Below are positions 3,371 through 39,022 of a stretch of DNA of 41,026 nt, one piece after another (within the stretch, counting starts at the first letter, position 1; every line of letters begins with the position of its first letter). Under the pieces are notes generated by a model that worked only from the letters and a program-made list of their open reading frames with translations, made no database searches and was not told the origin of the DNA. Origin of the DNA: a virus (taxonomy: Duplodnaviria; Heunggongvirae; Uroviricota; Caudoviricetes); IMG/VR virus record IMGVR_UViG_3300021255_000060, positions 126,961-167,986 of that record; one strand, given 5' to 3'. A program made the position numbers and the translations under genes.

Positions 3371-5583
3371 AAGAAAAAGAAATAGAAAAAATAAACCATT
3401 GTATTAGTGATTTGGTTTATGATAAAATAGCTTTAAAAAAGGCTTATAATTATTATCACGGTATTCGAGATGCCGAACAATTTAGACATATTGAGGAAAA
3501 TTACGGTATCGGAGTTCCAACATCTGTAGGATTCACACCGTTAATTAAAAAACACATTGATGTACTTGTCGGAGAATATCTTGAATTGGACCCTGATTTA
3601 CAAATTACTTGCAAAGATGAGGAAACACTCTCAAATATAATGAGGGATAAAAAACTCAAGATTGATAAAGAACTATATGAATTTTTACGCAAATATTTAC
3701 AAAACGCTATTGTAAATATTTTGTTAAATAGCCAACAACCTGTAAATGATCCTTTTATAGAAAAGGAAATGCAGAAAATTCAAAACGATATAGAACAAAG
3801 TTATATATCTGATTATGAAATTGCTGCACAGAACATTCTTTCATATATTAGAAATTCAAGAGATTTGGATTTGAAAAATAAAATGCGGGAATTATTTACA
3901 GACATATTAGTTGCTGGAATTTGTTATTATCGTGTTAGACCTAAAGGCGATAACATTTCGTTAGAAATATTAAACCCATTAGATACTTTTATAGAACGAA
4001 ATCAAAACGAATTTTATCTAAATAAATCTAGAAGAGCTGTAGTTAGAAGATGGCTAACAAAAGAACAGATTTTAGATGAATTCGGAGATGATTTAGGACC
4101 AGAAGCAATAGATCGATTAGAAGGAATGTTCGAAAGATATTCTTATGATGATAGAGCTGTTGTTGTAAGATCTACTGGAGCGTTATATGATGACAACGCA
4201 GATATACTTGGTAACGGAAAAACTCCGAGTCCTGGTATACTTGGTGGATTAGAAATTCATCCATTGTTTCCTTGGGATGAATCTGGCAGATATACTTATT
4301 CTAATGCTGACGTAATTGAAGTGTATGAATGTGAATGATTGGAATGAAGTAAAAAGAAAAATCGTTCAGTATTACATTATGGAGTAAGAATAGGAAATGA
4401 CATCTTTATTACTCCAGGAGAATCAAAATACTACGTTCAAAATAGAAGTAATCCAAAAGATGTTTCTTTAAACATCAACGGAATGTTTTTTAATGATAAA
4501 AACGGACAGCCGTATAGTCTTATGCTAGCTACAATGAACTTACAGGACAAATATGACTTACTACTGTACTGCAGAGATAATCTAATTGCTACTAGTGGTA
4601 CTGTAGGAGATTGAATTGATATAGCACATATTCCTGTAGCATTGGGAGTTAGTATGCCAGAAAGAATTATGAAATGACAAGCTTACAAAAAGAATGGTTT
4701 GGCATTATATGATTCTTCTCAAGAAGGTGCACAGATTCTTAATACAACTTTTAATGGATTTGATGATACTGTTAAAGCACAGTCTATCCAAGCAATTCAA
4801 ATTGCAATTGAATCGGTAGAAGCACAAGCATCTGCAACAACTGGAGTCTTTGCAGAAAAACTTGGAGGTATCCAAGAAAGAGATGCAGTGTCTAACGTTA
4901 AAGTGGGAATTCATCAATCCTCACTTCTTACAAAACAGTATTTCCATGCTATGGATTTGATGTATAAAGAAGTTAATTATGACCTATTAAATCTGGCAAA
5001 AGTAGTATATAAAAACGGAATCACTGGTTCTATTATTCTTGGAGATAGATTAGTAAAAACATTTACAGCACTTCCAGAACATTACACTTTAACTGATTTT
5101 GATATTCATATTCAAGATAGTTCAGAGGCATATAAAATGCGAGAGGACATAAAAGCAATTAACATTGAATTGATTAAAGCAGGTATGGTTGATGTACAAG
5201 ATACATTGTCTATTATTACTGCAAAGAATATGACTCAGTTAAAGAAGTATGTTGAACAATCTATTAAGAATAAAAAGGCCGAAAACGATATGATTGGGCA
5301 ACTTCAACAGCAAGTTGAACAAATGACAAATGAAAAGAAGCAATACGAACAACAAATGCAACAACTTAATTCTGAAATTCAACGTCTACAAAGTCAGGTT
5401 GAAAACAATAATAGAGAAAAACTTCAAATTGAGAAACAAAAAGTTGCAATTGATGAACAAGTTGCAAAAGATAAAAAGGATTACAATGATAAACTTATTG
5501 AAGTTAAAGAAAAGCAACTTAATGCAGAAATATTGCAAATTAGAGATGGAAATCCTTATAACGACCAAATAAGAGACGTATAA
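3364..5583 (+). CDS. Portal protein, ~739 aa with TGA=Trp
   Basis: Joins ORFs 3352 and 4699 across four TGA. crAss-portal-like sequence (AYNYYHG, TPLIKKHIDVLVGEYL, GICYYRV), C-terminal coiled coil, follows TerL. Confidence 0.92.
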
Positions 5584-5584
5584 T

Positions 5585-6334
5585 ATGGACAGTAGACTTT
5601 TTATGGAAATTGGAATCAACGACAATGGAAATCTATATGTAGTAGATAACTCTCCATATGAACGTTGAATTGAAGAATACGAAGAGGATATAGACCATGT
5701 AGTTTTTGAAAGAGTTTTAAAAATCACAACAGATGATTTGGATTATGAAGTGGTAGACGAAATATCTAATCCTGCTACATCTATCAATGAATTGAGAGCA
5801 GACAAAGAATTTGAATTACCAGAAGATAATTATTATCGTTATCAAAAAATGATAATCCCAACTGTAGAACATCGTGGAGATTCTACATGCTATGCTAGAC
5901 AAATCACTGTTACAATGAATGGTAAAGATCAAATCGATTATGCGATATATATTCTAGAAAACGATATACCAAGACAAGTTGATTTTACAGAAGCATTTGA
6001 TTATGTAAATAACGTAAATACTGGTAATGCATTTTGATTTGATGATGATATATTCTCTATATATAATTTAATAAAATGCTATATTCTAACAGAAAAGGAA
6101 AGATTAGCAGATTGATTAAAGAATAATTGTAAAGCAAATTGTGATAAGTTATCTTTGGTTAATACTAATGCAGATATGTTAATGGCTGCAGTTACAGTAT
6201 TAACTTACTTGATATCTAAAAGACAATTTTTGGAAGCATTTAGATTGTTAAATGGATTATCTACTTGTGGAACTTTATGTAAAGATTTTAGAAACAATAT
6301 AAAGGGTTGCGGTTGTGGAAAATCTGTATATTAG
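5585..6334 (+). CDS. Putative structural protein with Cys-rich C-terminus (CGTLC...GCGCGK), 249 aa with TGA=Trp
   Basis: ATG 5585, three in-frame TGA, TAG 6332-6334; abuts the portal stop. Confidence 0.75.
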
Positions 6335-6506
6335 ACTATATGAGTTGTTAAAAGAAGAAATGTCCGAGTTACGTCTCGGACATTCTTTTAACAGAGAAAG
6401 GATGGCTGAAATGAGAGAATTATGTCACATATTGACATATTTAAAATATGTGGATATGGGCAGTACAGATGTAATGCAAATATTCCAATATTATGACAAC
6501 TTATAA
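6315..6506 (+). CDS. Small hypothetical protein, 63 aa
   Basis: GTG-start ORF overlapping both neighbours in a tightly packed operon. Confidence 0.65.
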   Translation: MENLYIRLYELLKEEMSELRLGHSFNRERMAEMRELCHILTYLKYVDMGSTDVMQIFQYYDNL

Positions 6507-9500
6507 TAAACTTCCATATTCTAATCAATTTGAAAGAGGACATTCTTTTAATTGAGCTGGACATTGAAAAGAAGGCAGATATTATTATAATGATTCATAT
6601 GTTACCGATTTTGTAGTATTAGAGAACGTTGTATTAGTTTGTAGAAAAAATCATTTATCTTCAGATAAGCCAGAATTTGTATATAAAGACGGAAAAATTG
6701 TAGATATTAAATCTCCATTTTGAGAGTTTGTTCTTTGTGCTGAAGCTAGTGGTGGTGTCGCTATAACATCTGCTGAATTTATTGCAAATGCAACATATGA
6801 TGATTTTATTGCAGATCCAAATGTAATAATTGGAGACCCTTATATAAAAATGTACTTTTACTCAGGAGCATATTTATATACTCCTGTAAAAGATATAATT
6901 ACACAATATAAAGTAGGCATTCCGGTTTTAACACAAGCAATGTATGATGAGTTGCCAGACGTTACGAAACCTGATAAATGGTTACAAATTCCAGATGAAA
7001 CTGATTTAACTGAAACTGATGCTGGAGATTATTTGAATATATTATTCTCAGCAATCAGGAAATTACAAGCAGAAGTTACAAAATTAAAAAATTCGTTTGA
7101 TTATGGTATTGTATCTTATACTGGTACTGATACAGCCATGTCTGCAGTTGTTTCAGAATATGATAAAACAGAATCAGAAGAACCTTTATGGTCAATAGAT
7201 GAAGATGATTTATCTATCGTGGAAAATGCTACAATTGACTTTAAATCTCAATCAATACCGCCATTTGTTCCAGTAAACAACTTCCAATATAATGCAAACG
7301 GAGTAGCAAATATTACAGGTACTGTAAAATGAACAGATCCAGAAGAGGAAGGATTTAAAGAGCGCACTTCTGATACTAAGATTTTATTGTATCTTACAAC
7401 CACTACGTTGCATGATACATTTAACTTAGTTGGAATGTATGATAATTCTAGACTTAGTATAGATCTATCTACATTACCAATTCCTGCTGCTAATGATAAT
7501 AAATATAATATTTGTTTTCTTATATCTAGAAACGTTCAGTTAGATGAAGATTCAGAAGAAAAATATGGAGATAACTATATATGAATTAGTGTAAGCTCAT
7601 TTTTAAACGATATTGTTTTACTTGAAGGTTTTTATGACCCGTCTAATGGTAGAATTTCAAAAAGTCAAGTAAATATAGATACAGCTTATACAATTCAATC
7701 TGTTGATCTTGGAGTAGGAGATCTTTATAAATTTAAAGGTTGTTCCAAATATCAAGATTTTAGCAGAAAAGTAATCCCAAGTAAACCAAACGAAAGTGAT
7801 TATAGATATAAAGTAGCACACTTAACCATTAGATCTGTTGACAATTTTGCAGAATTAGAATCTGTAGAAGATTATCTTCTAGAAAACGAAATGATTTGGC
7901 AAGCAGATGAAGATATTTTATGAATTAAAACTAAAAAGGGACTTCGTACAATAGGAAGTTCTGATGGAGGAGACGACTCAGGTATGACACAAGAAGAAAT
8001 ATTACAAATGTTGAAAGACATGGGGATTGTGTATGTTGATGATACAGGTCTCCAACTATCAGACATTTCTGACATTACATTTATAAATGAAGATACTGGT
8101 AAACGATTTAAATTTGGAGTAACTTCAGAAGGAGAATTAAAAAGCGATGAAGTTCCAACTGAAAAATTAAAGGATATTGTTTCTCGTCTTGGAAGTAACC
8201 TTTCAGATAGTACTGGAAAAAGAGGTTTTATTTCAAGATTACTGTGTAGAACAGATGGAAATAATATAGATGCTTCTGCAGAAAAATCAGATCTTAGGCT
8301 TAGATCAGATAGACTGAAAATTGGAGCATTTTATGCGCCATTAAAAACTGATACCAAATTTGGATGTTCGCATGGATATATCGAATTAGAAAATACATCT
8401 GATTCTGATATTCCTTTAGACAATGTGTATCTTCATTTTATGCATCCAGATTCAACTAATGCATTAGTTATAGATAAACTTGAATTGGATGGTTATATTC
8501 CAGCTGGAGGTACTTATTTAATTAGATGTAAACAGTATGCAGATCCAAAAGTTAATGCAGATGTATTCATAAATGTAAATACTTTTGATAAAGAATGGTT
8601 TATTAATGGTGAATTAATGGACCTTAGAGTAGATACAGAAAATACATATGGGTTTCTATTAACATATGGTGATAAAGATGGAAATAATGAAATTACATAT
8701 CAATCATTGTTTATTTCTAAAAATACTGGTGATGTAGATTCTAAAGCGATTTATAGTTATAAATGGTTCTTTATCGATGCTATTATTTTAAATCGAGATC
8801 CATCTAATACCACAAATCAATATTGAGGGTACACTGGAAACGCTAGTAACGCTATAAAACCAAAATCTAATACTATCATTAAAAATACGTTTGAATTAGA
8901 TCCAGCAAAACAAGCGTATCAATCACATACAACATATGATAGTTCAAGATATAGAGTTGAATCTAAAGCAACTGATGTACAGTATCTAAATCTAGATAAA
9001 GAATATATAGAGTTTCCACATACAGTAGATAAATTTCCAGTTAGTAATTATACGCCAAAATCTTCCAGACAGCACAAAAATGTTTCTACAGACAAGACTA
9101 AATTAAACATGGATAAACCAAATATGGTTACTTGTTCATTTGGAATTAATGCTTATAATACAAGAACATTTAATTGGATATCTGCTGGACAATTTGATGA
9201 ATATGTTTGATTAAAATCCGGAAGTAATTGAATCAAATTCGAATCTTACAAAGCATCTGATGCAGATAAAGAAGAACTTGTATCATTTCCTAAAAGAAAG
9301 GAATGAAGTGCCGATGCAATAAATAATATCTATAAACGCATTGTTGGAGATTTTCCTGGAGATGGATCAAAATACACTTCTCATAAATGTATAATTCAAT
9401 TAATTGCTGATTCTGTAGATAATCCTACAACATATACATATATTGTTGGTAGAGCAGATAAAAATGGTAATCCTGATTTTGAACATTGTTCAGAAGAATA

Positions 9501-31587: not shown

Positions 31588-34158
31588 ATGCAAACAGGTA
31601 AAATATACAAAGGAGCCACCTTGATTAGTGGAGGTGGTTCCAACGGAAAAGATGGTGCATCTGCATATGAACTTTGGAAGGCTGCTGGAAACACTGGAAC
31701 AGTAGCTGATTTCCTTGAATCACTCAAGGGCGAGCCAGGTTCTAGTATTGACTATCCGTTCACACTTGCGGATGACTTAGTTACTACGGACACAACAAAG
31801 GCTCTTGCTGCGCCGCAGGGCGTAGTATTGAAGGAACTTTATGATGGATTGTTTTCGATTAAACAGCGGAATTACACTAATGGTTATAAGTTGGACAATA
31901 ATGGTAAGACAATCTATGATCCGATTTATATAATGTCAGACAAGATACCAGTTTCTACCGGAGATACAGTATATTGGAGATACAACACTACGGCAGATGC
32001 TTCAAACATCAAATTAGTTACATACACGTCCTCTGATGTAAAAATAACGTGGTGGGGCGCAACTTCAAATAACTCAAGAACATTAACTATAGAAGATGCA
32101 AATGTTGCATATTTTAGGGCTGTCATACCAGCCAACCAGTTTTACGCAGGCTACGTAAATATCAATGGTGTTCGTGCATGAACCCCATCCGATGGTGTTG
32201 CGGGTGAGATTGCGTCCTTGAAAAAATCGAGAGATGCAATCTTCTCTGGTGGGAAATATGAGGAAGTTGTCCCAGTCATATGGAATAATGACAATCAATA
32301 CATGGGTGTTGATGGCACATTTATATCAAGTGAAAACGCGCATACGTCTTCTTTGCTTTTTGTGCCTGCTGGGGTTACAATCAATGCAGAGCTTGGTGCT
32401 GGAACAACATGTTCTGCAATAACCGTTGTGGGAGAAGACGGCACATTTATAAGTAGTGCCGCTACTGGGAAAGGTTCAGCAAATACCATCGGTCCGTATA
32501 GTTTTACAGCAAATGAGGATTGCTATGTAATGTTTTCCAGCAGAACGGACGTACATGCGTATATTACGTTTTTGTACGACGGAAGTACTATTTCTGGTGG
32601 TAATGACGAAGAAATAATTTATAGTGGAGAGTTGGTTGGTAATGGTGATACACTTTCGTATCGTAGATTCCCTGCTAGACAAGGCGATTATTTGCATATA
32701 TTCTTCCCTAATGGGAACTGGTCAACTGACAGTAACAGAGAAAGTTATAATAAGTTAATTCTTGGCAGCGTTCGAATAGACGGGGTTGGTTATGCTGGAG
32801 GTGCCGAGGTGTTGAGAGAAGGCTGGGTCTGTCCAGAATATGGTTTTGACTTTATAGTAGAACCATTTAACATTAATGACCCCATATCAGAACCATATGG
32901 CGGATTGTCATATAGGGCGGCATCCGGTGTGCATGTTCCTTTCGTTATTTCAAAGTTGTCAAAAACAACACCAAAGAAATGTTTCGACCTTGAGATGGCA
33001 AGGACGATTCGGTCTGTCAAAGAGAGAATCGTTGATGGTAAAAGCCTTGTTTTCGCAATTTGTAGTGATTTGCATTATAGAGATCTTGAAGAAGGATATA
33101 GGCCCTTTGCTCAATTCTCTCCTATTCAGATGGCTATAACAATGAGGAATTTTACCGAAAAGGTACGTACTGATAACGTTGTGTGTCTCGGAGATATTTC
33201 TGATGGAAGGTGGACTGCTGCGAGGGCTGAATTGGATGCTTATACCTGTCAGTGGTTCTTGGGACAATGTAAGGCCCCCGTCTTAAATGTCGTTGGCAAC
33301 CACGATGATAACCGTTATTATAGCCAGCAAGACGGAGATAGACGGCTAACGCAAGCTGAAATTTATTCGAATATGATGTCTCACAATGACGAGCGCATTA
33401 CTGTTGATGGTGCGATGGGCGGTTGTAACTATTATCGTGATATTGATAGAGCAAAGGTCCGTCTGATTGTCTTAATGGGAATTGATTTTAATGGAAATTA
33501 TAACTTTACAACCGAAACTCAAAACTGACTTAGTGCTACATTTTCTTCTATGCCAGAAGGTTGGAAAGCAATTATTTTTACACACGTTCCCCCAGTTGCG
33601 GCACAAAACTGGAGTGGTACTGCTTATTCCGGAGGAGGATACATATCAGATATTATTTCCGCAAACCTAGACAAGTTCCTTTTCTTATATGAAGGACATA
33701 CGCATATTGATAATGTGTATGTTTCTCCGTGGACAGCAATTAATATCGGTTGTCAAAAAGTGTATAATTCAGAAGATGGCACTAATACGCTCGGCTCTTC
33801 TGCTCCAGAAGGAGCTTGATGGCCTGTTCGTGCTGCTGGTGATTATCGTGAAGTGTTATGGGATGCAGTTGTTGTTGATCAGACTAATTCCCTCCTATCT
33901 TGCATAAGATTTGGAGCAGGGGTCGACAGATATATTCATCTTGAACCGATAACATTGGCTGCGGGAGGATCTGTATCTCTAACCCCATCAGTAATTACTG
34001 CAACGTCATGGGAGACAAGGACAAGTGAAGTGGAGTCAATAAGTATTGCAAATGGCGTTGCCTCTTTAACATCCGCTGCGGTATCAGGATCTCGTCATAT
34101 TGCAATTGCGAAGGACACGGATGGCAATATGGAAATTTGGTGTATTAAAGTTTCATAA
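31588..34158 (+). CDS. Putative tail fibre/spike with C-terminal calcineurin-like metallophosphoesterase, 856 aa with TGA=Trp
   Basis: Joins ORFs 31588, 32218, 33550 and 33853 across three TGA. Full motif set: SDLHY, GDISDG, GNHDD, THVP, GHTH. Confidence 0.85.
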
Positions 34159-34249: not shown

Positions 34250-34280
34250 AAAGAGCAGATTTTCACAGTCTGCTCTTTTT
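34250..34280 (+). terminator. Rho-independent terminator closing the tail cluster
   Basis: AAAGAGCAGAT-tttcaca-GTCTGCTCTTT followed by a T run. Confidence 0.85.
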
Positions 34281-34400
34281 ATTTTAAAATTTTTTCTTAA
34301 TAAATACATTCAAGAAGACTTCGAAGAAGTTAATATACCAGAAGAAGAGAATCTGGAAGAAATAGAAGATGAAATAGACGAATTAGTAACATCTGACTAA
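34281..34400 (+). pseudogene. Probable 3' gene remnant (acidic tail ...EEVNIPEEENLEEIEDEIDELVTSD*) with no start codon
   Basis: GAA-rich, coding-like frame ending TAA 34398-34400, stranded between two terminators, no ATG. Confidence 0.4.
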
Positions 34401-34413
34401 TTCAAATTTTTAT

Positions 34414-34450
34414 AAATCCCTGTAACTCAAAAGGTTACGGGGATTTTTGT
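34414..34450 (+). terminator. Rho-independent terminator
   Basis: AAATCCCTGTAAC-tcaaaag-GTTACGGGGATTT followed by TTGTTTT. Confidence 0.85.
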
Positions 34451-34489
34451 TTTATGCTAGTAACGTTGTGTTTCAGCCATTTTGTGTTG

Positions 34490-34513
34490 TATCTTTGCAT
34501 TGTTGATCAACAA
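34490..34513 (+). promoter_or_regulatory. Bacteroidota -7 promoter element TATCTTTG plus adjacent 14-bp palindrome (putative operator)
   Basis: TATCTTTG at 34490-34497; perfect palindrome TTGTTGATCAACAA at 34500-34513; ATG at 34552. Confidence 0.65.
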
Positions 34514-34551
34514 AAGGAAGATTTATAAATTAACAATTAAATTGTAATAAA

Positions 34552-35439
34552 ATGGCAGAAGAAAAAACTTATGTATTTGACGGTGCTTCTCGCAACGATA
34601 TTCCACTTGCCTATGCATTAAACGGTAATGGTGGTTTTGGTAACGGTTTTGGCGGCTGAGGTGGTGGTATCCTTGGTTTCCTTCTTGGTGCACTATTTGG
34701 TGGTGGCTGAGGCGGATTTGGTGGTTTCGGCGGAGGTAACTTCGGTGGAGCTGGATATCTTGGCAATCAGATTAACAATGATAATAATACAGACCTTATT
34801 ATGCAAGCAATTAATGGAACAGATTCAGATGTACGTTTACTAGCTACTACTTTAAACGCAGACGTTAATGAAGTACGCAGCGCTATTTCTACTATGCAAC
34901 TTGCTATTCAGAATGTTGGTTCTCAGGTTGGTATGAGTGGCTTACAGATTCAGAATGCTATTCTTTCTGGAGACGCTGGTATTCAGTCTAAGATTGCCGA
35001 GTGTTGCTGCGAAAATCGTCTTTTGACTACTCAGCAAGGTTATGAAGCTCAGCTTCGTACTATTGAACAGACTAACACTCTTGGTACACAAGCAGAACGC
35101 AATACAAACTCTATCATAAATGCAATTAATGCTCAGACTATTGCAATGAATGATCAGTTCTGCGCACTTAAAGAACGTGAACTTCAAGATAAGATTACCT
35201 CTTTAACTGCAGCTAATACTGCTCTCAAAGGTCAGATTGATAACGCTAATCAAACTGCTGCTGTTGCTGCTATGCTTGCTCCAATTCAGAAAGAAGTTTC
35301 TGAAATTAAGGCTGCACAACCTGCAACTACAACTGTTACTTATCCTCAGTTAACTGCAGTTCCATCTTATATGTTATATGGAAATGGAAGTTATTACGGA
35401 TATCCTTTTTATAATGGAAGTGGCTCTATCTGGGCTTAA
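34552..35439 (+). CDS. Gly-rich hydrophobic N-terminus + coiled-coil protein with CCC motif, 295 aa with TGA=Trp (cassette gene 1)
   Basis: ATG 34552, TGA at 34657 and 34708, joins ORF 34801. GGFGNGFGGWGGGILGFLLGALFGGGWGG segment, heptad region, ECCCEN. Confidence 0.85.
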
Positions 35440-35464
35440 TTTAGCTTAGGAGGGGCTTTACATT

Positions 35465-35800
35465 ATGGCAACTAGTTTTTTATTTAATAGAGTTAATATT
35501 AATGGAATCCCATGTATAGAAACTACCGGTATAACTGAAAGTGCTACATCTGTAACATATAATTTTAATGCGTCTCCATCGGTAAATCCAAGATTTTCTG
35601 GAATTATCGCTGTAAGAGTAGATGTAACACCTACTACAACAACTTTACCAGTAAATTTTAATGTTCCAAGTATAGCTGGAACTACAATTGCTTTAACTCT
35701 TCCAGGAGGTACTCAAGCAACTGGTGACGATTTAACTGCTACCGGAATATACTTGGTATTCTATGATAGAACAAATGGAATTTTACAATTATTAGTTTAA
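35465..35800 (+). CDS. Beta-rich hypothetical protein, 111 aa (cassette gene 2)
   Basis: Clean ORF; Thr/Val/Pro-rich alternating pattern. Confidence 0.8.
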   Translation: MATSFLFNRVNINGIPCIETTGITESATSVTYNFNASPSVNPRFSGIIAVRVDVTPTTTTLPVNFNVPSIAGTTIALTLPGGTQATGDDLTATGIYLVFYDRTNGILQLLV

Positions 35801-35804
35801 TATT

Positions 35805-36308
35805 ATGTTTCAATCAGTAAGACCAAATAGTCCAATTTACGTATTTCATAAAGGCGATAATGTTAGATTAGAAACTGGGTACGTTGTAAATCAACCAATA
35901 CCAAAGCCTAAGTATCAAATGCCACATAATTTTGGACAGACGCAAGAAATGATAGTAGATTTAGTTGTTAAATTAAACGATATGACAGTAAATTACAATG
36001 CGTTACCTGCACAATTAGATATTGCTGATTCTTACAGCAATGGAGAAAATATAGTAATATCTGATAGTCGTGATGCAATAAATGCTGAAATTATTAGTTT
36101 AAAACAAAAAAGTATAGATATAATAAATAGTGTAGATTATCATAAATCGTTAATTAACCAATATGATAAACTACTAGCGGACTTTAATCCAGAAATGGCA
36201 GAAAAACAAGCTCAACAGCAAGAAATTGCTCAATTGAGGAATCAAATGGACGAAATGAGTAAAAATATGGCCTTACTGATTGAGCAATTAAAACAAAAGG
36301 AGAACTAA
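35805..36308 (+). CDS. Hypothetical protein with C-terminal coiled coil, 167 aa (cassette gene 3)
   Basis: Clean ORF, tightly packed. Confidence 0.82.
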   Translation: MFQSVRPNSPIYVFHKGDNVRLETGYVVNQPIPKPKYQMPHNFGQTQEMIVDLVVKLNDMTVNYNALPAQLDIADSYSNGENIVISDSRDAINAEIISLKQKSIDIINSVDYHKSLINQYDKLLADFNPEMAEKQAQQQEIAQLRNQMDEMSKNMALLIEQLKQKEN

Positions 36309-36310
36309 CG

Positions 36311-36514
36311 ATGCGTATGTGGGAAATTAGAGAAAAGGACAAATATAGCGATTATCGCATGGGTAATAGACACATGTCTGCAGAAGAAGCTTACGAATGT
36401 GGTTACGAAGATGGCTACAAAGAAGCTATGGAAGAGATTGAAGAAATGGGTTCTAGAACATCTTCCTATAGAATGGGAGAACGTTCTAGAGATTCAAGAG
36501 GAAGATATCGTTAA
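36311..36514 (+). CDS. Small charged protein, 67 aa (AYECGYEDGY and RSRDSRGRY motifs; cassette gene 4)
   Basis: Clean ORF, tightly packed. Confidence 0.78.
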   Translation: MRMWEIREKDKYSDYRMGNRHMSAEEAYECGYEDGYKEAMEEIEEMGSRTSSYRMGERSRDSRGRYR

Positions 36515-36517
36515 AAT

Positions 36518-36928
36518 ATGAGATTGGATGCAAGAGATAAGTTTCCATCTGGAATGGAAGATTATCTTTCTGCTTATGGATGGCACTTTTCAAAGAAAAT
36601 GTTTGAATGAGCAACTTCAAACATGTACAAAGAAGATATAGCCGGAAATAGATCATATATTAAACCTATGGATAAAGATTCTGTAGATGAGCTGTTAAAA
36701 AGATATAACGTTAACCTAGAAAATAAAAATGGTTACGATTATGTATTTGCAGCAAATATGGCTATGGCAGATTATATGGGATCTTCAATAGAAGATGAGA
36801 AACACATAGCTTTATTCATTAAAGACTATGTAGACGACAAAGATGGATATCCAGAGTTACCTTTTACTAGGTTTTATGCCGATTGTATAGGATCTGGACA
36901 TCCAATATCATGAGAAGACGTAATTTAA
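36518..36928 (+). CDS. Hypothetical helical protein, 136 aa with TGA=Trp (cassette gene 5)
   Basis: ATG 36518, TGA at FEW and ISW, TAA 36926-36928 overlapping the next ATG. Confidence 0.8.
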
Positions 36929-37356
36929 TGATAGTTCAGGAATTCTACCTTGAGGATTGGGATTGATATGTAATTGTATATTACGCAGTTGATACATATT
37001 ATGTAAGTGAGATATTAGGTGAATTGGAAGAAATTGGCTGTTCAGAATACGAGTTAAAAGAAGCAGAGAAAAATTTAATGACAGCAAGATATAATATAGG
37101 ATTAACTTATTCCAACCTCAAGGTTAGATGTTCTGTTGTCGTTATAGGATTAACTTCGTCTCCTGCACAATTTCAAAATACCTTTGATCATGAAAAAGGT
37201 CATTTAGCTATGCACATTTGTATTGAATCAGATATTGATCCATTCTCTGAAGAATATCAGTATTTGACTGGAGAAATCGGACAACAAATGTTTCCAGTAG
37301 CTAAAAACTTTCTTTGTGAACATTGTAGATTAAAATTAAAGGGTGAGGACAATTAG
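36928..37356 (+). CDS. HExxH putative zinc-metallopeptidase-like protein, 142 aa with TGA=Trp (cassette gene 6)
   Basis: ATG 36928, one TGA (WDW); TFDHEKGHLAMH with a downstream PFSEE Glu. Confidence 0.72.
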
Positions 37357-37372
37357 TCTTCACCTTTTTTTT
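37339..37372 (+). terminator. Rho-independent terminator closing the six-gene cassette
   Basis: AAGGGTGAGGAC-aatta-GTCTTCACCTTT plus a T run; overlaps the TAG of the last gene. Confidence 0.85.
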
Positions 37373-37402
37373 GTTTTATCAAATTTTATTTGTATATTTG
37401 CG
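37370..37402 (+). promoter_or_regulatory. Bacteroidota sigma70-type promoter (-33 TTTG, 19-nt spacer, -7 TATATTTG)
   Basis: TTTG 37370-37373, TATATTTG 37393-37400, ATG at 37425. Confidence 0.82.
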
Positions 37403-37424
37403 CCGAATGTAAAATATTAAAACT

Positions 37425-37688
37425 ATGATAGACCAAAATAATATTGATTTCGATAAACTAAAAGGATTTGATACCTATCCAACTGCTGAAGAGGTAGAAA
37501 ACTTTCCTACAATAAAATATACAGTATGAGATAAATTGAAGCAAGCAATAAGAAAATTGCTTCCTCCTGAAAATGTAAAGAGAGGTAGAAATTGACATAT
37601 GTATCCTGGCATTAACCTAAATGGTCCGCCACAATTTTATGAAAATGGAGCGAAAGTTAAAACGAAAGATTTGTTTAATATTTATTAA
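37425..37688 (+). CDS. Hypothetical protein, 87 aa with TGA=Trp
   Basis: ATG after a promoter, two in-frame TGA, TAA 37686-37688. Confidence 0.6.
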
Positions 37689-38037
37689 ATATTCACCTTG
37701 AGTCATTGGCTTATATTATTTAGTTCTTAGTATTTTATCTTGCTATGGTATAAATTTATTTATATTTAATGAAATATTCGGAATTACGGCAATAACAATT
37801 TTATTAGTTACATGTTTATCGTTAATTCTAGAGTTTTGTATATGGCATAGATTACCATTATATTATTCTAGTTTGATTGAGATTATTAATGGAATAGATT
37901 ATTATCTAACAATACCATTATCAAATAAATTTATGCTTATAATATACTTAATAATATTTGGAATATTTATATTGATTGGTGCATATACTAAAAATAAGAA
38001 CAATGTCAAAAGAAAAAGAAGTAATACATCTATTTAA
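37645..38037 (+). CDS. Small multi-pass membrane protein (~4 hydrophobic segments), ~130 aa with TGA=Trp
   Basis: Missing from the ORF track because of TGA 37699. Basic N- and C-termini flank hydrophobic stretches; start could also be 37621 or 37639. Confidence 0.72.
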
Positions 38038-38281
38038 ACATATAATTAAAGAAATAGATTGTGGTAATTCCAAAGTAGATGAAGATGGATATGATTTAAT
38101 TCTTGATTCTATAAACAAAATAACTAATACTAAAAATAAACTAAGCAAATATCAAGCTTGTCAAAAGTTAGGAATTAGTAGAGCAACATTTGATAATAGA
38201 GTTAAGGATGGTAAGATTCCAAAAGGTAGAAAAGAACCTGGATTTAAAGAATTGTTTTGATATGAACAAGATTTACAATAA
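38003..38281 (+). CDS. AlpA/excisionase-like helix-turn-helix DNA-binding protein, 92 aa with TGA=Trp
   Basis: LSKYQACQKLGISRATFDNRVKDGKIPKG...LFW is a typical Xis/AlpA winged-HTH pattern. Confidence 0.78.
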
Positions 38282-38606
38282 ATACATATTGTATTTGGCA
38301 TTAGGATTGATTGTATTTTTAATTTTATTTATAAATCAATCAAGATATAATCGACTACAAAATAAATACAATAGATTAAAAATTGAATCTATTGAACAAA
38401 TTGATTCTCTAACATACATTAATAGAGAACACATGAAAAAGATTTCTGAATTTGAATTAGAAATTAATGAATTGGAAAATACAGTTGATTCCTTAGAACA
38501 AGTTAAGAATAAAATAATAATAAAAAAGGATCAAGTAATTGTTTCTTCTACTATTTCAGAAGGTGTACAACAACTTAAAGATAATTTGGAAAGATGAAAA
38601 GACTAA
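38262..38606 (+). CDS. N-terminal TM + coiled-coil protein (inner-membrane spanin-like), ~114 aa (ends 38597 if TGA is a stop)
   Basis: YILYLALGLIVFLILFI followed by heptads; ATGA overlap with the next gene. Confidence 0.62.
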
Positions 38607-39022
38607 TTACATTTTTATTATTATTTGTTTCTATAATCTGTTCTGCACAACTCCCAAGTGAAATTAAACATGTAGAAATTGTATCAGAAGTAGCAGATAC
38701 AATGATAGTACTAAATAAAATTGATTTGGATAAAATCAATACTGCTTTTTACATGTTAGATGCTTATGATTCATTAAATGTTGTTAGTGAAGAAATGATT
38801 TCTACATTAAAAGTCATAAATAATAACTTGGAAAATGTTATTGAGCAGCAAAAGTATGTAATAGATAATCAAGAAATTCAAATAAAGACAATAAATAGCA
38901 AAAATAAAGATGTTATCTCCGATTTAGAGAAACAAGTAAAGAGAGCAAATAGATGAAAAGCATTTTGAGAAGGAACAACTGGAGTTAGTGTAATTGCAGT
39001 AATTTTACTTGCAATTTTCTAA
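38594..39022 (+). CDS. Signal peptide + coiled coil + C-terminal TM protein (spanin-like), 142 aa with TGA=Trp
   Basis: MKRLITFLLLFVSIICSAQ signal; two TGA (RWKAFW) precede the TM segment GVSVIAVILLAIF*. Confidence 0.62.

Follow-up and report, generated by a model that had tools for sequence, protein, structure and literature searches.

What does a set of six genes do that keeps its order, together with an attached regulator, across phages with little else in common? The question is raised by a gene cassette, g1 to g6, in the 41,026-nucleotide (nt) stretch of DNA analyzed here (the window), which is the last 41 kb of the 167,986-bp genome of a crAss-like phage (IMG/VR record IMGVR_UViG_3300021255_000060, positions 126,961 to 167,986). 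The viruses of the human gut are dominated by phages of Bacteroidales, the crAss-like ones among them, and the function of most of their genes is unknown. We conclude that: i) the cassette is a very widely conserved, real unit whose genes move together among unrelated phage types, ii) it is an autonomous unit and yet a member of the late regulon of the phage, and iii) the gene that heads it, g1, codes for a probably abundant protein in which a Cys-knotted coiled coil is combined with a membrane-like segment. Our tentative reading, for which we claim less than an even chance, is that the cassette is a portable late-gene module of Bacteroidales phages that acts on the host envelope around lysis or egress. 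The conservation and the cost of the cassette imply an important function, beyond the current models of lysis (holin, endolysin, spanin) and of the crassvirus virion, but its eventual role may still prove to be of a known kind, such as a lysis accessory or a fibre.

Organization and transcription signals of the cassette

The cassette comprises six plus-strand genes. Gene g1 (34552-35439) codes for a protein of 295 amino acids (aa) that belongs to phrog_16490, and g2 (35465-35800) for a 111-aa predicted beta-sandwich. They are followed by g3 (35805-36308; 167 aa, a predicted SH3-like beta-barrel plus a two-helix hairpin; phrog_28898), g4 (36311-36514; 67 aa, with an acidic helix and an Arg/Gly/Tyr-rich tail), g5 (36518-36928; 136 aa, Pfam DUF7841; phrog_38431) and g6 (36928-37356; 142 aa, a putative minimal zincin of the HExxH+E type). 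The spacers from g1-g2 through g5-g6 measure 25, 4, 2, 3 and -1 nt. With genetic code table 11, g1 is interrupted by in-frame TGA codons at positions 34657 and 34708, and it becomes a single 295-aa open reading frame (ORF) when TGA is read as Trp. TGA codons read in the same way are present in g5 (36608 and 36911) and in g6 (36964). For g6, the ATG that overlaps the g5 stop codon (TAATG) was preferred as the start over a longer TTG-initiated ORF, because it agrees with the N-termini of all relatives.

A preliminary description of this locus, made from the sequence alone, had proposed that the unit is insulated by two upstream terminators, a Bacteroidota promoter of its own with a palindrome, and a terminator of its own, and each of these elements was recovered, the terminators and the promoter on the plus strand. 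The first upstream terminator-like hairpin (34250-34278; 12-bp stem, then a T run) ends the tail-fibre gene 31588-34158, and the second (34414-34446; 14-bp stem) lies directly before the promoter. A third terminator-like hairpin was called at 37338-37368, where it closes the cassette. The Bacteroidota-type promoter (34465-34497), whose consensus is established knowledge of Bacteroides promoters, consists of a -33-like GTTG (34465-34468), a 21-nt spacer and the -7 box TATCTTTG (34490-34497). Three bases after the -7 box, the dyad-symmetric element TTGTTGATCAACAA (34500-34513), a 14-bp palindrome, lies over the predicted transcription start.

The same layout (a hairpin with a T run, a TAnnTTTG box, and a dyad 2-4 nt further on) is repeated upstream of g1 in ∼50 distinct related loci, and a hairpin followed by a T run is found at a conserved position 5′ of g1 in most related contigs. 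The symmetry of the dyad is retained while its letters vary from locus to locus, as in TGTGATCACA, TGTAGATCTACA, TGTAAGCTTACA and GGTCAGG-n5-CCTGACC. A role as a 5′ hairpin that stabilizes the RNA was considered and rejected: the folds predicted for crAss-like loci are weak (median minimum free energy of -2.3 kcal/mol, median z of -0.25), and strong dyad hairpins (-8 to -16 kcal/mol) occur in some prophage-like loci only. Since the dyads of the crAss-like loci fold so weakly as RNA, they are taken for operator sites of a protein that binds over the start. Immediately 5′ of g1, a small helix-turn-helix (HTH) gene was identified at 51 or more of the 109 loci, being of the AlpA/excisionase type in 35 (within 900 nt) and of the DnaA_C type in 16. 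In the window, the candidate regulator is a small excisionase/AlpA-type HTH gene (38003-38281, plus strand; mad1 HTH, 2e-5; weak match to the excisionase family), which lies just downstream of the cassette rather than immediately 5′ of g1, its place in most related phages. The dyad TTGTTGATCAACAA is probably the operator for this neighbouring small HTH protein.

Gut metatranscriptome contigs from four runs of three studies cover positions 34524-37345 and the scaffold/capsid region, and none was found on 37365-38704. Near the terminator, the RNA contigs end at 37275, 37316 and 37345. These extents fit the predicted start and stop of transcription, a weak hint from contigs that cannot rank expression and that may in part derive from DNA carried over into the RNA libraries.

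Conservation of the cassette

A blastn search of the cassette region against the phage collection found nothing. At 90% clustering, g1 has more than 7,000 relatives; at 50%, there are 880 representative clusters, of which 491 have E ≤ 1e-10. Nearly all of them are 250-335 aa long, with no fused forms among the matches listed. The preliminary description mentioned similar clusters in other gut phages, and an analysis of synteny bears this out: all six genes are present in order in 26 of the 42 viral contigs found via g1, and four or five genes in 13 more. When species-representative bacterial assemblies were searched with g5 as the seed, g1, g2, g3, g5 and g6 were found in order at 52 of 79 loci, and most of the remaining loci were broken by contig ends.

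The carriers are crAss-like podoviruses of ∼90-177 kb, phages of 40-75 kb, and prophage-like loci. Those of the crAss-like type come from several families (cr272_1, cr271_1, cr116_1 and the epsilon-type CrAssE-Sib), and in a 176-kb TGA-recoded contig the sizes of six genes match those of the cassette. Among the smaller phages, the 74-kb Bacteroides uniformis phage C3_41T2LP has the full set in order, except that no g4-type gene was detected; Dulem virus 40, of 73 kb, has g1, g3, g5 and g6. Cultured members of Paraprevotella, Parabacteroides and Bacteroides harbour prophage-like carriers. The six carriers in culture all belong to the Bacteroidales; the non-Bacteroidales labels belong to metagenome bins and may reflect mis-binned phage contigs. 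A reduced form is present in Suoliviridae, e.g. in cr52_1, where a fused g5-like/g4-like gene is followed by g1, g2 and a g3-like gene.

Two variants were observed in addition. In cr52_1 (4123-6739), the 200-aa protein encoded 5′ of g1 joins a g5-like domain to a g4-like acidic/Arg-Gly-Tyr tail, and its public annotation is 'RNA polymerase sigma factor/ubiquitin-like protein'. In vir335 (Caudoviricetes sp.; host in the record, Methanomassiliicoccales), a g1 homologue with two CCC motifs (5653-6576) occurs without g2-g6; its neighbour is a 'tail protein' gene, and among the genes of the run that it heads is one for a putative tail spike of 793 aa.

Sequence identity to the window is unevenly spread over the genes. 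In one clade (L020-L046), g1 is 38-41% identical to that of the window, g6 69-71% and g3 ∼55%, and in another (L007-L010) the pattern is reversed, with 66-72% for g1 and 49-55% for g6. Such mosaic identities suggest recombination inside the unit. A literature search gave no hits for C3_41T2LP, DUF7841 or the BF and PD phage names, and the paper on epsilon-crAss phages does not discuss the cassette genes. The role of the cassette is directly testable, because it has cultured carriers: C3_41T2LP, whose host is B. uniformis MB20-41, PD691P6, and the prophage-like elements of Paraprevotella and Parabacteroides isolates, among them Paraprevotella clara YIT 11840 and Parabacteroides segnis BX2.

The cassette is part of the late programme

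When TGA is read as Trp (table 4), fragments in the window are joined into giant ORFs of 1519, 2653 and 1573 aa, and a tRNA with anticodon UCA is encoded in the phage genome (complement 79692-79763; ARAGORN). Genome-wide, TGA codons are enriched in the plus-strand structural blocks and scarce in the minus-strand replication block. In recoded gut phages, such a distribution marks late genes that await the phage suppressor tRNA for their translation. In the cassette, in-frame TGA codons are present in g1, g5 and g6, and its translation depends on the phage TGA suppressor tRNA. In cr52_1, which is TAG-recoded, the homologous genes (g1 and the g3-like gene) carry in-frame TAG codons.

These results refine the proposal, made in the preliminary description, that the unit behaves like a moron rather than as part of the structural operon. 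The autonomy holds, since promoter, operator and terminator are its own, but the cassette is not a free-standing moron outside the late programme, because g1, g5 and g6 contain recoded TGA and because its promoter, dyad and leader are common to another late operon.

The palindrome TGTTGATCAACA and the leader 'atgtttaac...tttaaatttt' were observed as a second copy at genome positions 115177-115571, outside the window. The gene behind that copy (115177) codes for a protein of 115 aa, whose hydrophobic N-terminus contains Gly and which also has a coiled coil, and the operon that it opens also holds a transglycosylase-like protein and a 611-aa fibre-like protein.

Gene 1

The product of g1 can be divided into head, rod and tail. 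The N-terminus, MAEEKTYVF, is found in 31 of 41 homologues. The head (54% Gly, 15% Phe) contains a Gly/Phe/Trp-rich hydrophobic segment at about residues 25-72, which is present in all homologues with a Kyte-Doolittle (KD) maximum over 19 residues of 1.3-1.7, and which clearly resembles a transmembrane (TM) segment in several clades. The rod is a 190-residue helical stretch, rich in Ala, Gln, Thr and Asn, that carries a CCC motif and one further Cys. The motif is conserved in 40 of 41 homologues, with 3-9 Cys in each (mostly 4 or 8-9), and the prophage-like forms at loci L054 and L069 have even more, including Cys-rich tails. Both the hydrophobic segment and the CCC motif had been pointed out in the preliminary description. 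The tail (21% Tyr, 15% Gly) ends in Trp-Ala (SIWA) and has no hydrophobic helix.

A codon choice like that of the major capsid protein had been attributed to g1, with high expression as its consequence. This applies to g1, whose fractions of CTT, CGT and CAG are 0.56, 0.57 and 0.67 compared with 0.86, 0.62 and 0.67 in the capsid gene, most other genes being far lower, but it does not extend to the rest of the cassette: g2-g6 are without the bias. In its codons, g1 is optimized like the capsid protein, which predicts an output at the level of the capsid, and it is probably highly expressed.

It had also been noticed that a fusion-peptide-like segment is followed by heptads. A weak profile match covers exactly that part: residues 18-130 of g1 align to residues 875-993 of coronavirus S2 and to residues 3-89 of influenza HA2, with E-values of 0.004-0.05 that are possibly compositional. 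The likeness appears to be an architectural resemblance. It accounts for the public labels 'spike protein/glycoprotein' and 'viral fiber' of the homologues. A protein atlas search with g1 returned only its own family.

Genes 2 to 6

No export signal was found in any of g2-g6. The g2 protein, which starts with MATSFLFNRVNINGIPC, has neither a signal peptide nor a lipobox; its ESM Atlas model (pTM 0.71) resembles domains of large phage proteins that carry Collar, DUF5048 or Gly_rich_2 (TM-score 0.62-0.64). The model of g3 (pLDDT 86) consists of an SH3-like barrel (residues 1-87) and a two-helix hairpin (residues 89-166). The barrel superimposes on domain I of EF-P (Z 6.7, rmsd 1.8 Å, 58 residues). 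The structure search with the g3 model gave generic matches to SH3-like barrels and helical hairpins only, and its viral structural neighbours are all uncharacterised. In g4, the acidic helix EEAYECGYEDGY precedes the Arg/Gly/Tyr-rich tail.

The g5 protein belongs to Pfam DUF7841 (PF25223), with 99.6 bits relative to a gathering cut-off of 25.2 (E 1.6e-28), and PF25223 is also matched by its homologues. It is mostly helical in a confident model (pLDDT 89.5), for which Foldseek found no match in the PDB (best E 1.1). In a wide VIA-align search, the NEDD8 protease (Z 4.2, rmsd 3.9 Å, 96 residues) and Ulp1-like proteins (Z ≤3.7) stayed below the meaningful level. The His-Asp-Cys triad of the clan CE (Ulp1-like) cysteine proteases was not found in g5, whose alignment contains no invariant or near-invariant Cys.

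The HExxH protein of the preliminary description is g6, where the motif reads HEKGH and is conserved. In an alignment of 16 sequences, H88, E89, H92, E108, Y112 and C130 are invariant and C133 is nearly so; an HExxH motif with a downstream third ligand (E108) is the signature of a zincin. Among the relatives, 6 of 16 gave SprT-like matches (best E 5e-4), all below the gathering scores, and ArdC (6i89) was matched with an E of 1.6; the g6 protein of the window matched nothing in Pfam, SprT-like PF10263 included. In phage C3_41T2LP, the g6 homologue carries the annotation PolyVal metallopeptidase. As in the zincins of mobile elements (SprT-like PF10263, the C-terminal domain of ArdC, MPTase-PolyVal), a Glu lies 16 residues after the second His of HExxH. 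In contrast to them, g6 stands alone as a protein of 142 aa, has a CxxC in its C-terminal part, and lacks a fused single-stranded DNA-binding domain or polyvalent-protein context. It is best described as a conserved, putative minimal zincin, weakly SprT/ArdC-like.

Searches of Pfam, PHROGs, NCBIfam and PADLOC gave a functional name to none of the six products, and profile searches of the sequences of solved structures with g2, g3 and g5 gave noise only. PADLOC-DB 2.0 contained no defence-system match; the rows for g1 (ZorA, 0.039) and g3 (PbeC, 3e-4, partial) were at noise level. We conclude that no cassette product has a characterised relative, and that the cassette matches no characterised system.

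Genomic neighbourhood of the cassette

Over hundreds of unrelated Bacteroidales phages that share the gene order, lysis or tail-fibre genes are the usual neighbours of the cassette. In the window, tail-fibre genes precede the cassette. Behind it come, in this order, genes for a 4-TM protein, the HTH protein, a TM and coiled-coil protein, a lipobox protein with a TM helix at its C-terminus, an acidic protein of 370 aa, and the capsid protein. The region 37621-39022 resembles a lysis block, and all its genes contain recoded TGA. The 4-TM protein (37621-38037) is holin-like, the TM and coiled-coil protein is encoded at 38262-38606, and the lipobox protein (38594-39022) has the layout of a unimolecular spanin. 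No endolysin was seen in the window.

The prophage-like loci of Paraprevotella xylaniphila, Parabacteroides segnis and Bacteroides gallinarum share the order holin-type membrane protein, endolysin, lipoprotein with a C-terminal TM helix, HTH and cassette, and convergent genes lie 3′ of the cassette. For P. segnis, the holin-type protein was confirmed as Phage_holin_4_1 (Pfam), and the lipoproteins of loci L054, L069 and L085 have the unimolecular-spanin architecture. In Parabacteroides phage PD691P6, a divergent g1 (with Gly-rich segment and CCC), g3 and g5 are located immediately 5′ of the holin and amidase genes, and in B. fragilis phage BF486P2 g5 adjoins the holin gene. The cassette of cr272_1 lies just upstream of the endolysin gene, and in cr4_1, cr1_1 and cr52_1 g1 is near holin or lysis regulator genes. 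The backbone of PhicrAss001 is the same, and a search of its first 50 kb, where the structural and lysis genes lie, found nothing with the g1 profile.

A proposed role in the envelope around lysis or egress

An envelope role is favoured because the cassette tracks the Bacteroidales host range and not the virion type, because it is repeatedly adjacent to lysis genes in unrelated lineages, and because g1 combines a membrane-like anchor with cysteines of the extracytoplasmic type. We envisage that g1 would be made in very large amounts, with its Gly-rich hydrophobic segment inserted into the inner membrane. The 190-residue rod would then lie outside the cytoplasm, where it could oligomerise and be locked via the CCC cysteines; here, extracellular coiled coils with a knot of clustered cysteines serve as the model. 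The Tyr/Gly/Trp tail would reach the wall or the outer membrane. The g2-g6 proteins would act from the cytoplasm as partners in the assembly, holding or processing of g1, or, alternatively, might reach the periplasm only after the holin fires. The small HTH protein, bound to the dyad over the start site, would time expression. The net effect would be that the envelope is prepared, tethered or breached for the release of progeny, the cassette adding to holin, endolysin and unimolecular spanin rather than substituting for them.

Among the known systems closest to the cassette are the phage spanins, such as the two-component Rz/Rz1 of lambda and the unimolecular gp11 of T1. g1 recalls an i-spanin in its putative membrane segment close to the N-terminus, its long predicted coiled coil and its conserved Cys residues, and it is a late gene that often lies beside holin and endolysin genes. 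Unlike an i-spanin, it is about twice as long, has five partners predicted to be cytoplasmic, and uses codons as the capsid gene does. The cassette differs from a two-component spanin in lacking a gene for a partner lipoprotein, all of g2-g6 being without signal peptide or lipobox. The unimolecular type differs too, since g1 has no N-terminal lipobox or C-terminal TM helix, and a separate gene with both features is carried by the same genomes.

Several observations weigh against an envelope role. With no signal peptide, g2-g6 would reside in a different compartment from the periplasmic domain of g1. The outer-membrane step is apparently covered by the unimolecular-spanin-like gene of the same genomes, and lysis proteins are normally not produced at the level of the capsid. 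The hydrophobic segment of the window's own g1 is borderline for a TM helix (KD 1.34). Finally, the flanks in many crAss-like relatives are tail-fibre and scaffold/capsid genes with no lysis gene between them, so that the adjacency to lysis genes may reflect a common insertion zone only.

Alternative roles

The strongest alternative is an accessory fibre or adhesin of the virion, which we consider somewhat unlikely. Here g1 would supply many copies per particle of a coiled-coil fibre, knotted by disulfides and ending in a sticky Tyr/Gly tail, with g2 as its knob or tip and g3-g6 as adaptors, chaperones and a processing protease. The precedent is provided by PhicrAss001, whose head fibres are formed by a gp21 trimer and a gp29 dimer, gp29 being encoded inside the lysis block (PMC10172136); the authors of that work consider that uncharacterised proteins may fill the head-fibre role in other crassviruses (PMC10172136). 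Like the cassette proteins, gp21 and gp29 are small to medium late proteins from the same part of the crassvirus genome; they consist of an oligomeric stalk and a beta-sandwich, and a high copy number, as for gp21/gp29, would explain why g1 alone has capsid-like codon use. Late expression, the Cys-rich features of extracellular type in g1, the likeness of the g2 model to tail-fibre tip domains (Collar, DUF5048, Gly_rich_2; TM-score 0.62-0.64), and the tail-fibre and scaffold/capsid neighbours also fit a fibre. So do the public annotation of homologues as 'outer capsid protein/viral fiber' and the setting of the vir335 homologue, with a 'tail protein' gene beside it and a candidate tail spike encoded among the genes that it heads. 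However, the same cassette, with the conserved N-terminus of g1, is found across unrelated virion types, which is hard to reconcile with specific docking to a capsid or a tail. A conserved TM-like segment would not be expected of a fibre, the cassette is served by a regulator, a promoter and a terminator of its own, and in prophage-like elements it sits after the lysis genes, outside the structural operon. Moreover, the comparison made with g2 shows no sequence relation to gp21 or gp29 (hhalign probability 0.2-0.3%), the cassette occurs in non-crAss phages as well, and the 50 kb of structural and lysis genes of PhicrAss001 do not contain it.

Less probable is a regulated moron that alters the host envelope, for superinfection exclusion, receptor masking or defence against rivals, with g1 as the membrane effector and g6 as a protease that activates it or cleaves the target. 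Exclusion and toxicity, together with protease activation and polymer formation, were put forward as candidate activities in the preliminary description. The insulated unit with a dedicated HTH protein and an operator over the start site would suit such a role, as would the portability between phage types, the combination of a membrane protein with a protease, and the position in prophage-like elements, where the cassette follows the lysis genes and closes the late operon, a classic site for lysogenic conversion. In the lytic crAss-like phages, however, the recoded stops tie translation to the late, suppressor-dependent phase, whereas exclusion by lytic phages is usually early. Six coupled, conserved genes and capsid-level expression would be unusual for exclusion, and no PADLOC model is matched.

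More doubtful still is that g1 represents a new membrane fusogen or envelope staple. The zincin would cut off a propeptide and expose a Gly-rich, fusion-peptide-like segment on a disulfide-locked coiled coil, the aromatic tail would engage the outer membrane, and g1 and its five partners would make up an extra, hitherto unrecognised step in the exit of Bacteroidales phages from their diderm hosts (or in their entry). The Gly-rich hydrophobic peptide followed by a long heptad region recalls the class I fusion proteins (HA2, S2), and the protease gene of the operon (g6) could prime g1. Unlike those proteins, g1 is not anchored by a C-terminal TM helix, its hydrophobic segment comes after 25-55 residues of conserved leader, and the profile matches are marginal and possibly driven by composition.

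The least probable role, which we regard as quite improbable, is a cytoplasmic filament or condensate scaffold, in which an intermediate-filament-like g1 and the Arg/Gly/Tyr tail of g4 would build up a polymer or gel, attached to the membrane, for the organization of late assembly: the head (54% Gly, 15% Phe) and tail (21% Tyr, 15% Gly) of g1, the acidic helix and RG/Y-rich tail of g4, the abundance of g1 indicated by codon choice, the missing export signals of all partners, and a head-rod-tail plan with glycine/aromatic-rich ends and possibly cross-linking cysteines, as in keratins and proteins of the crescentin/FilP type, speak for it, but conserved clustered cysteines would be unusual for a cytoplasmic polymer in an anaerobe, the rod is shorter, the hydrophobic segment resembles a membrane anchor in several clades, and the likeness is one of composition, with no homology to known cytoskeletal proteins.

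Other features

Between the two upstream terminators of the window, a short open frame (34295-34400) with a very acidic end, EEENLEEIEDEIDELVTSD, was observed, which is unlike the HTH gene found at this place in related phages. An additional tRNA, with anticodon UUA, which would read TAA, was called by ARAGORN at genome position complement 83959-84033, outside the window.

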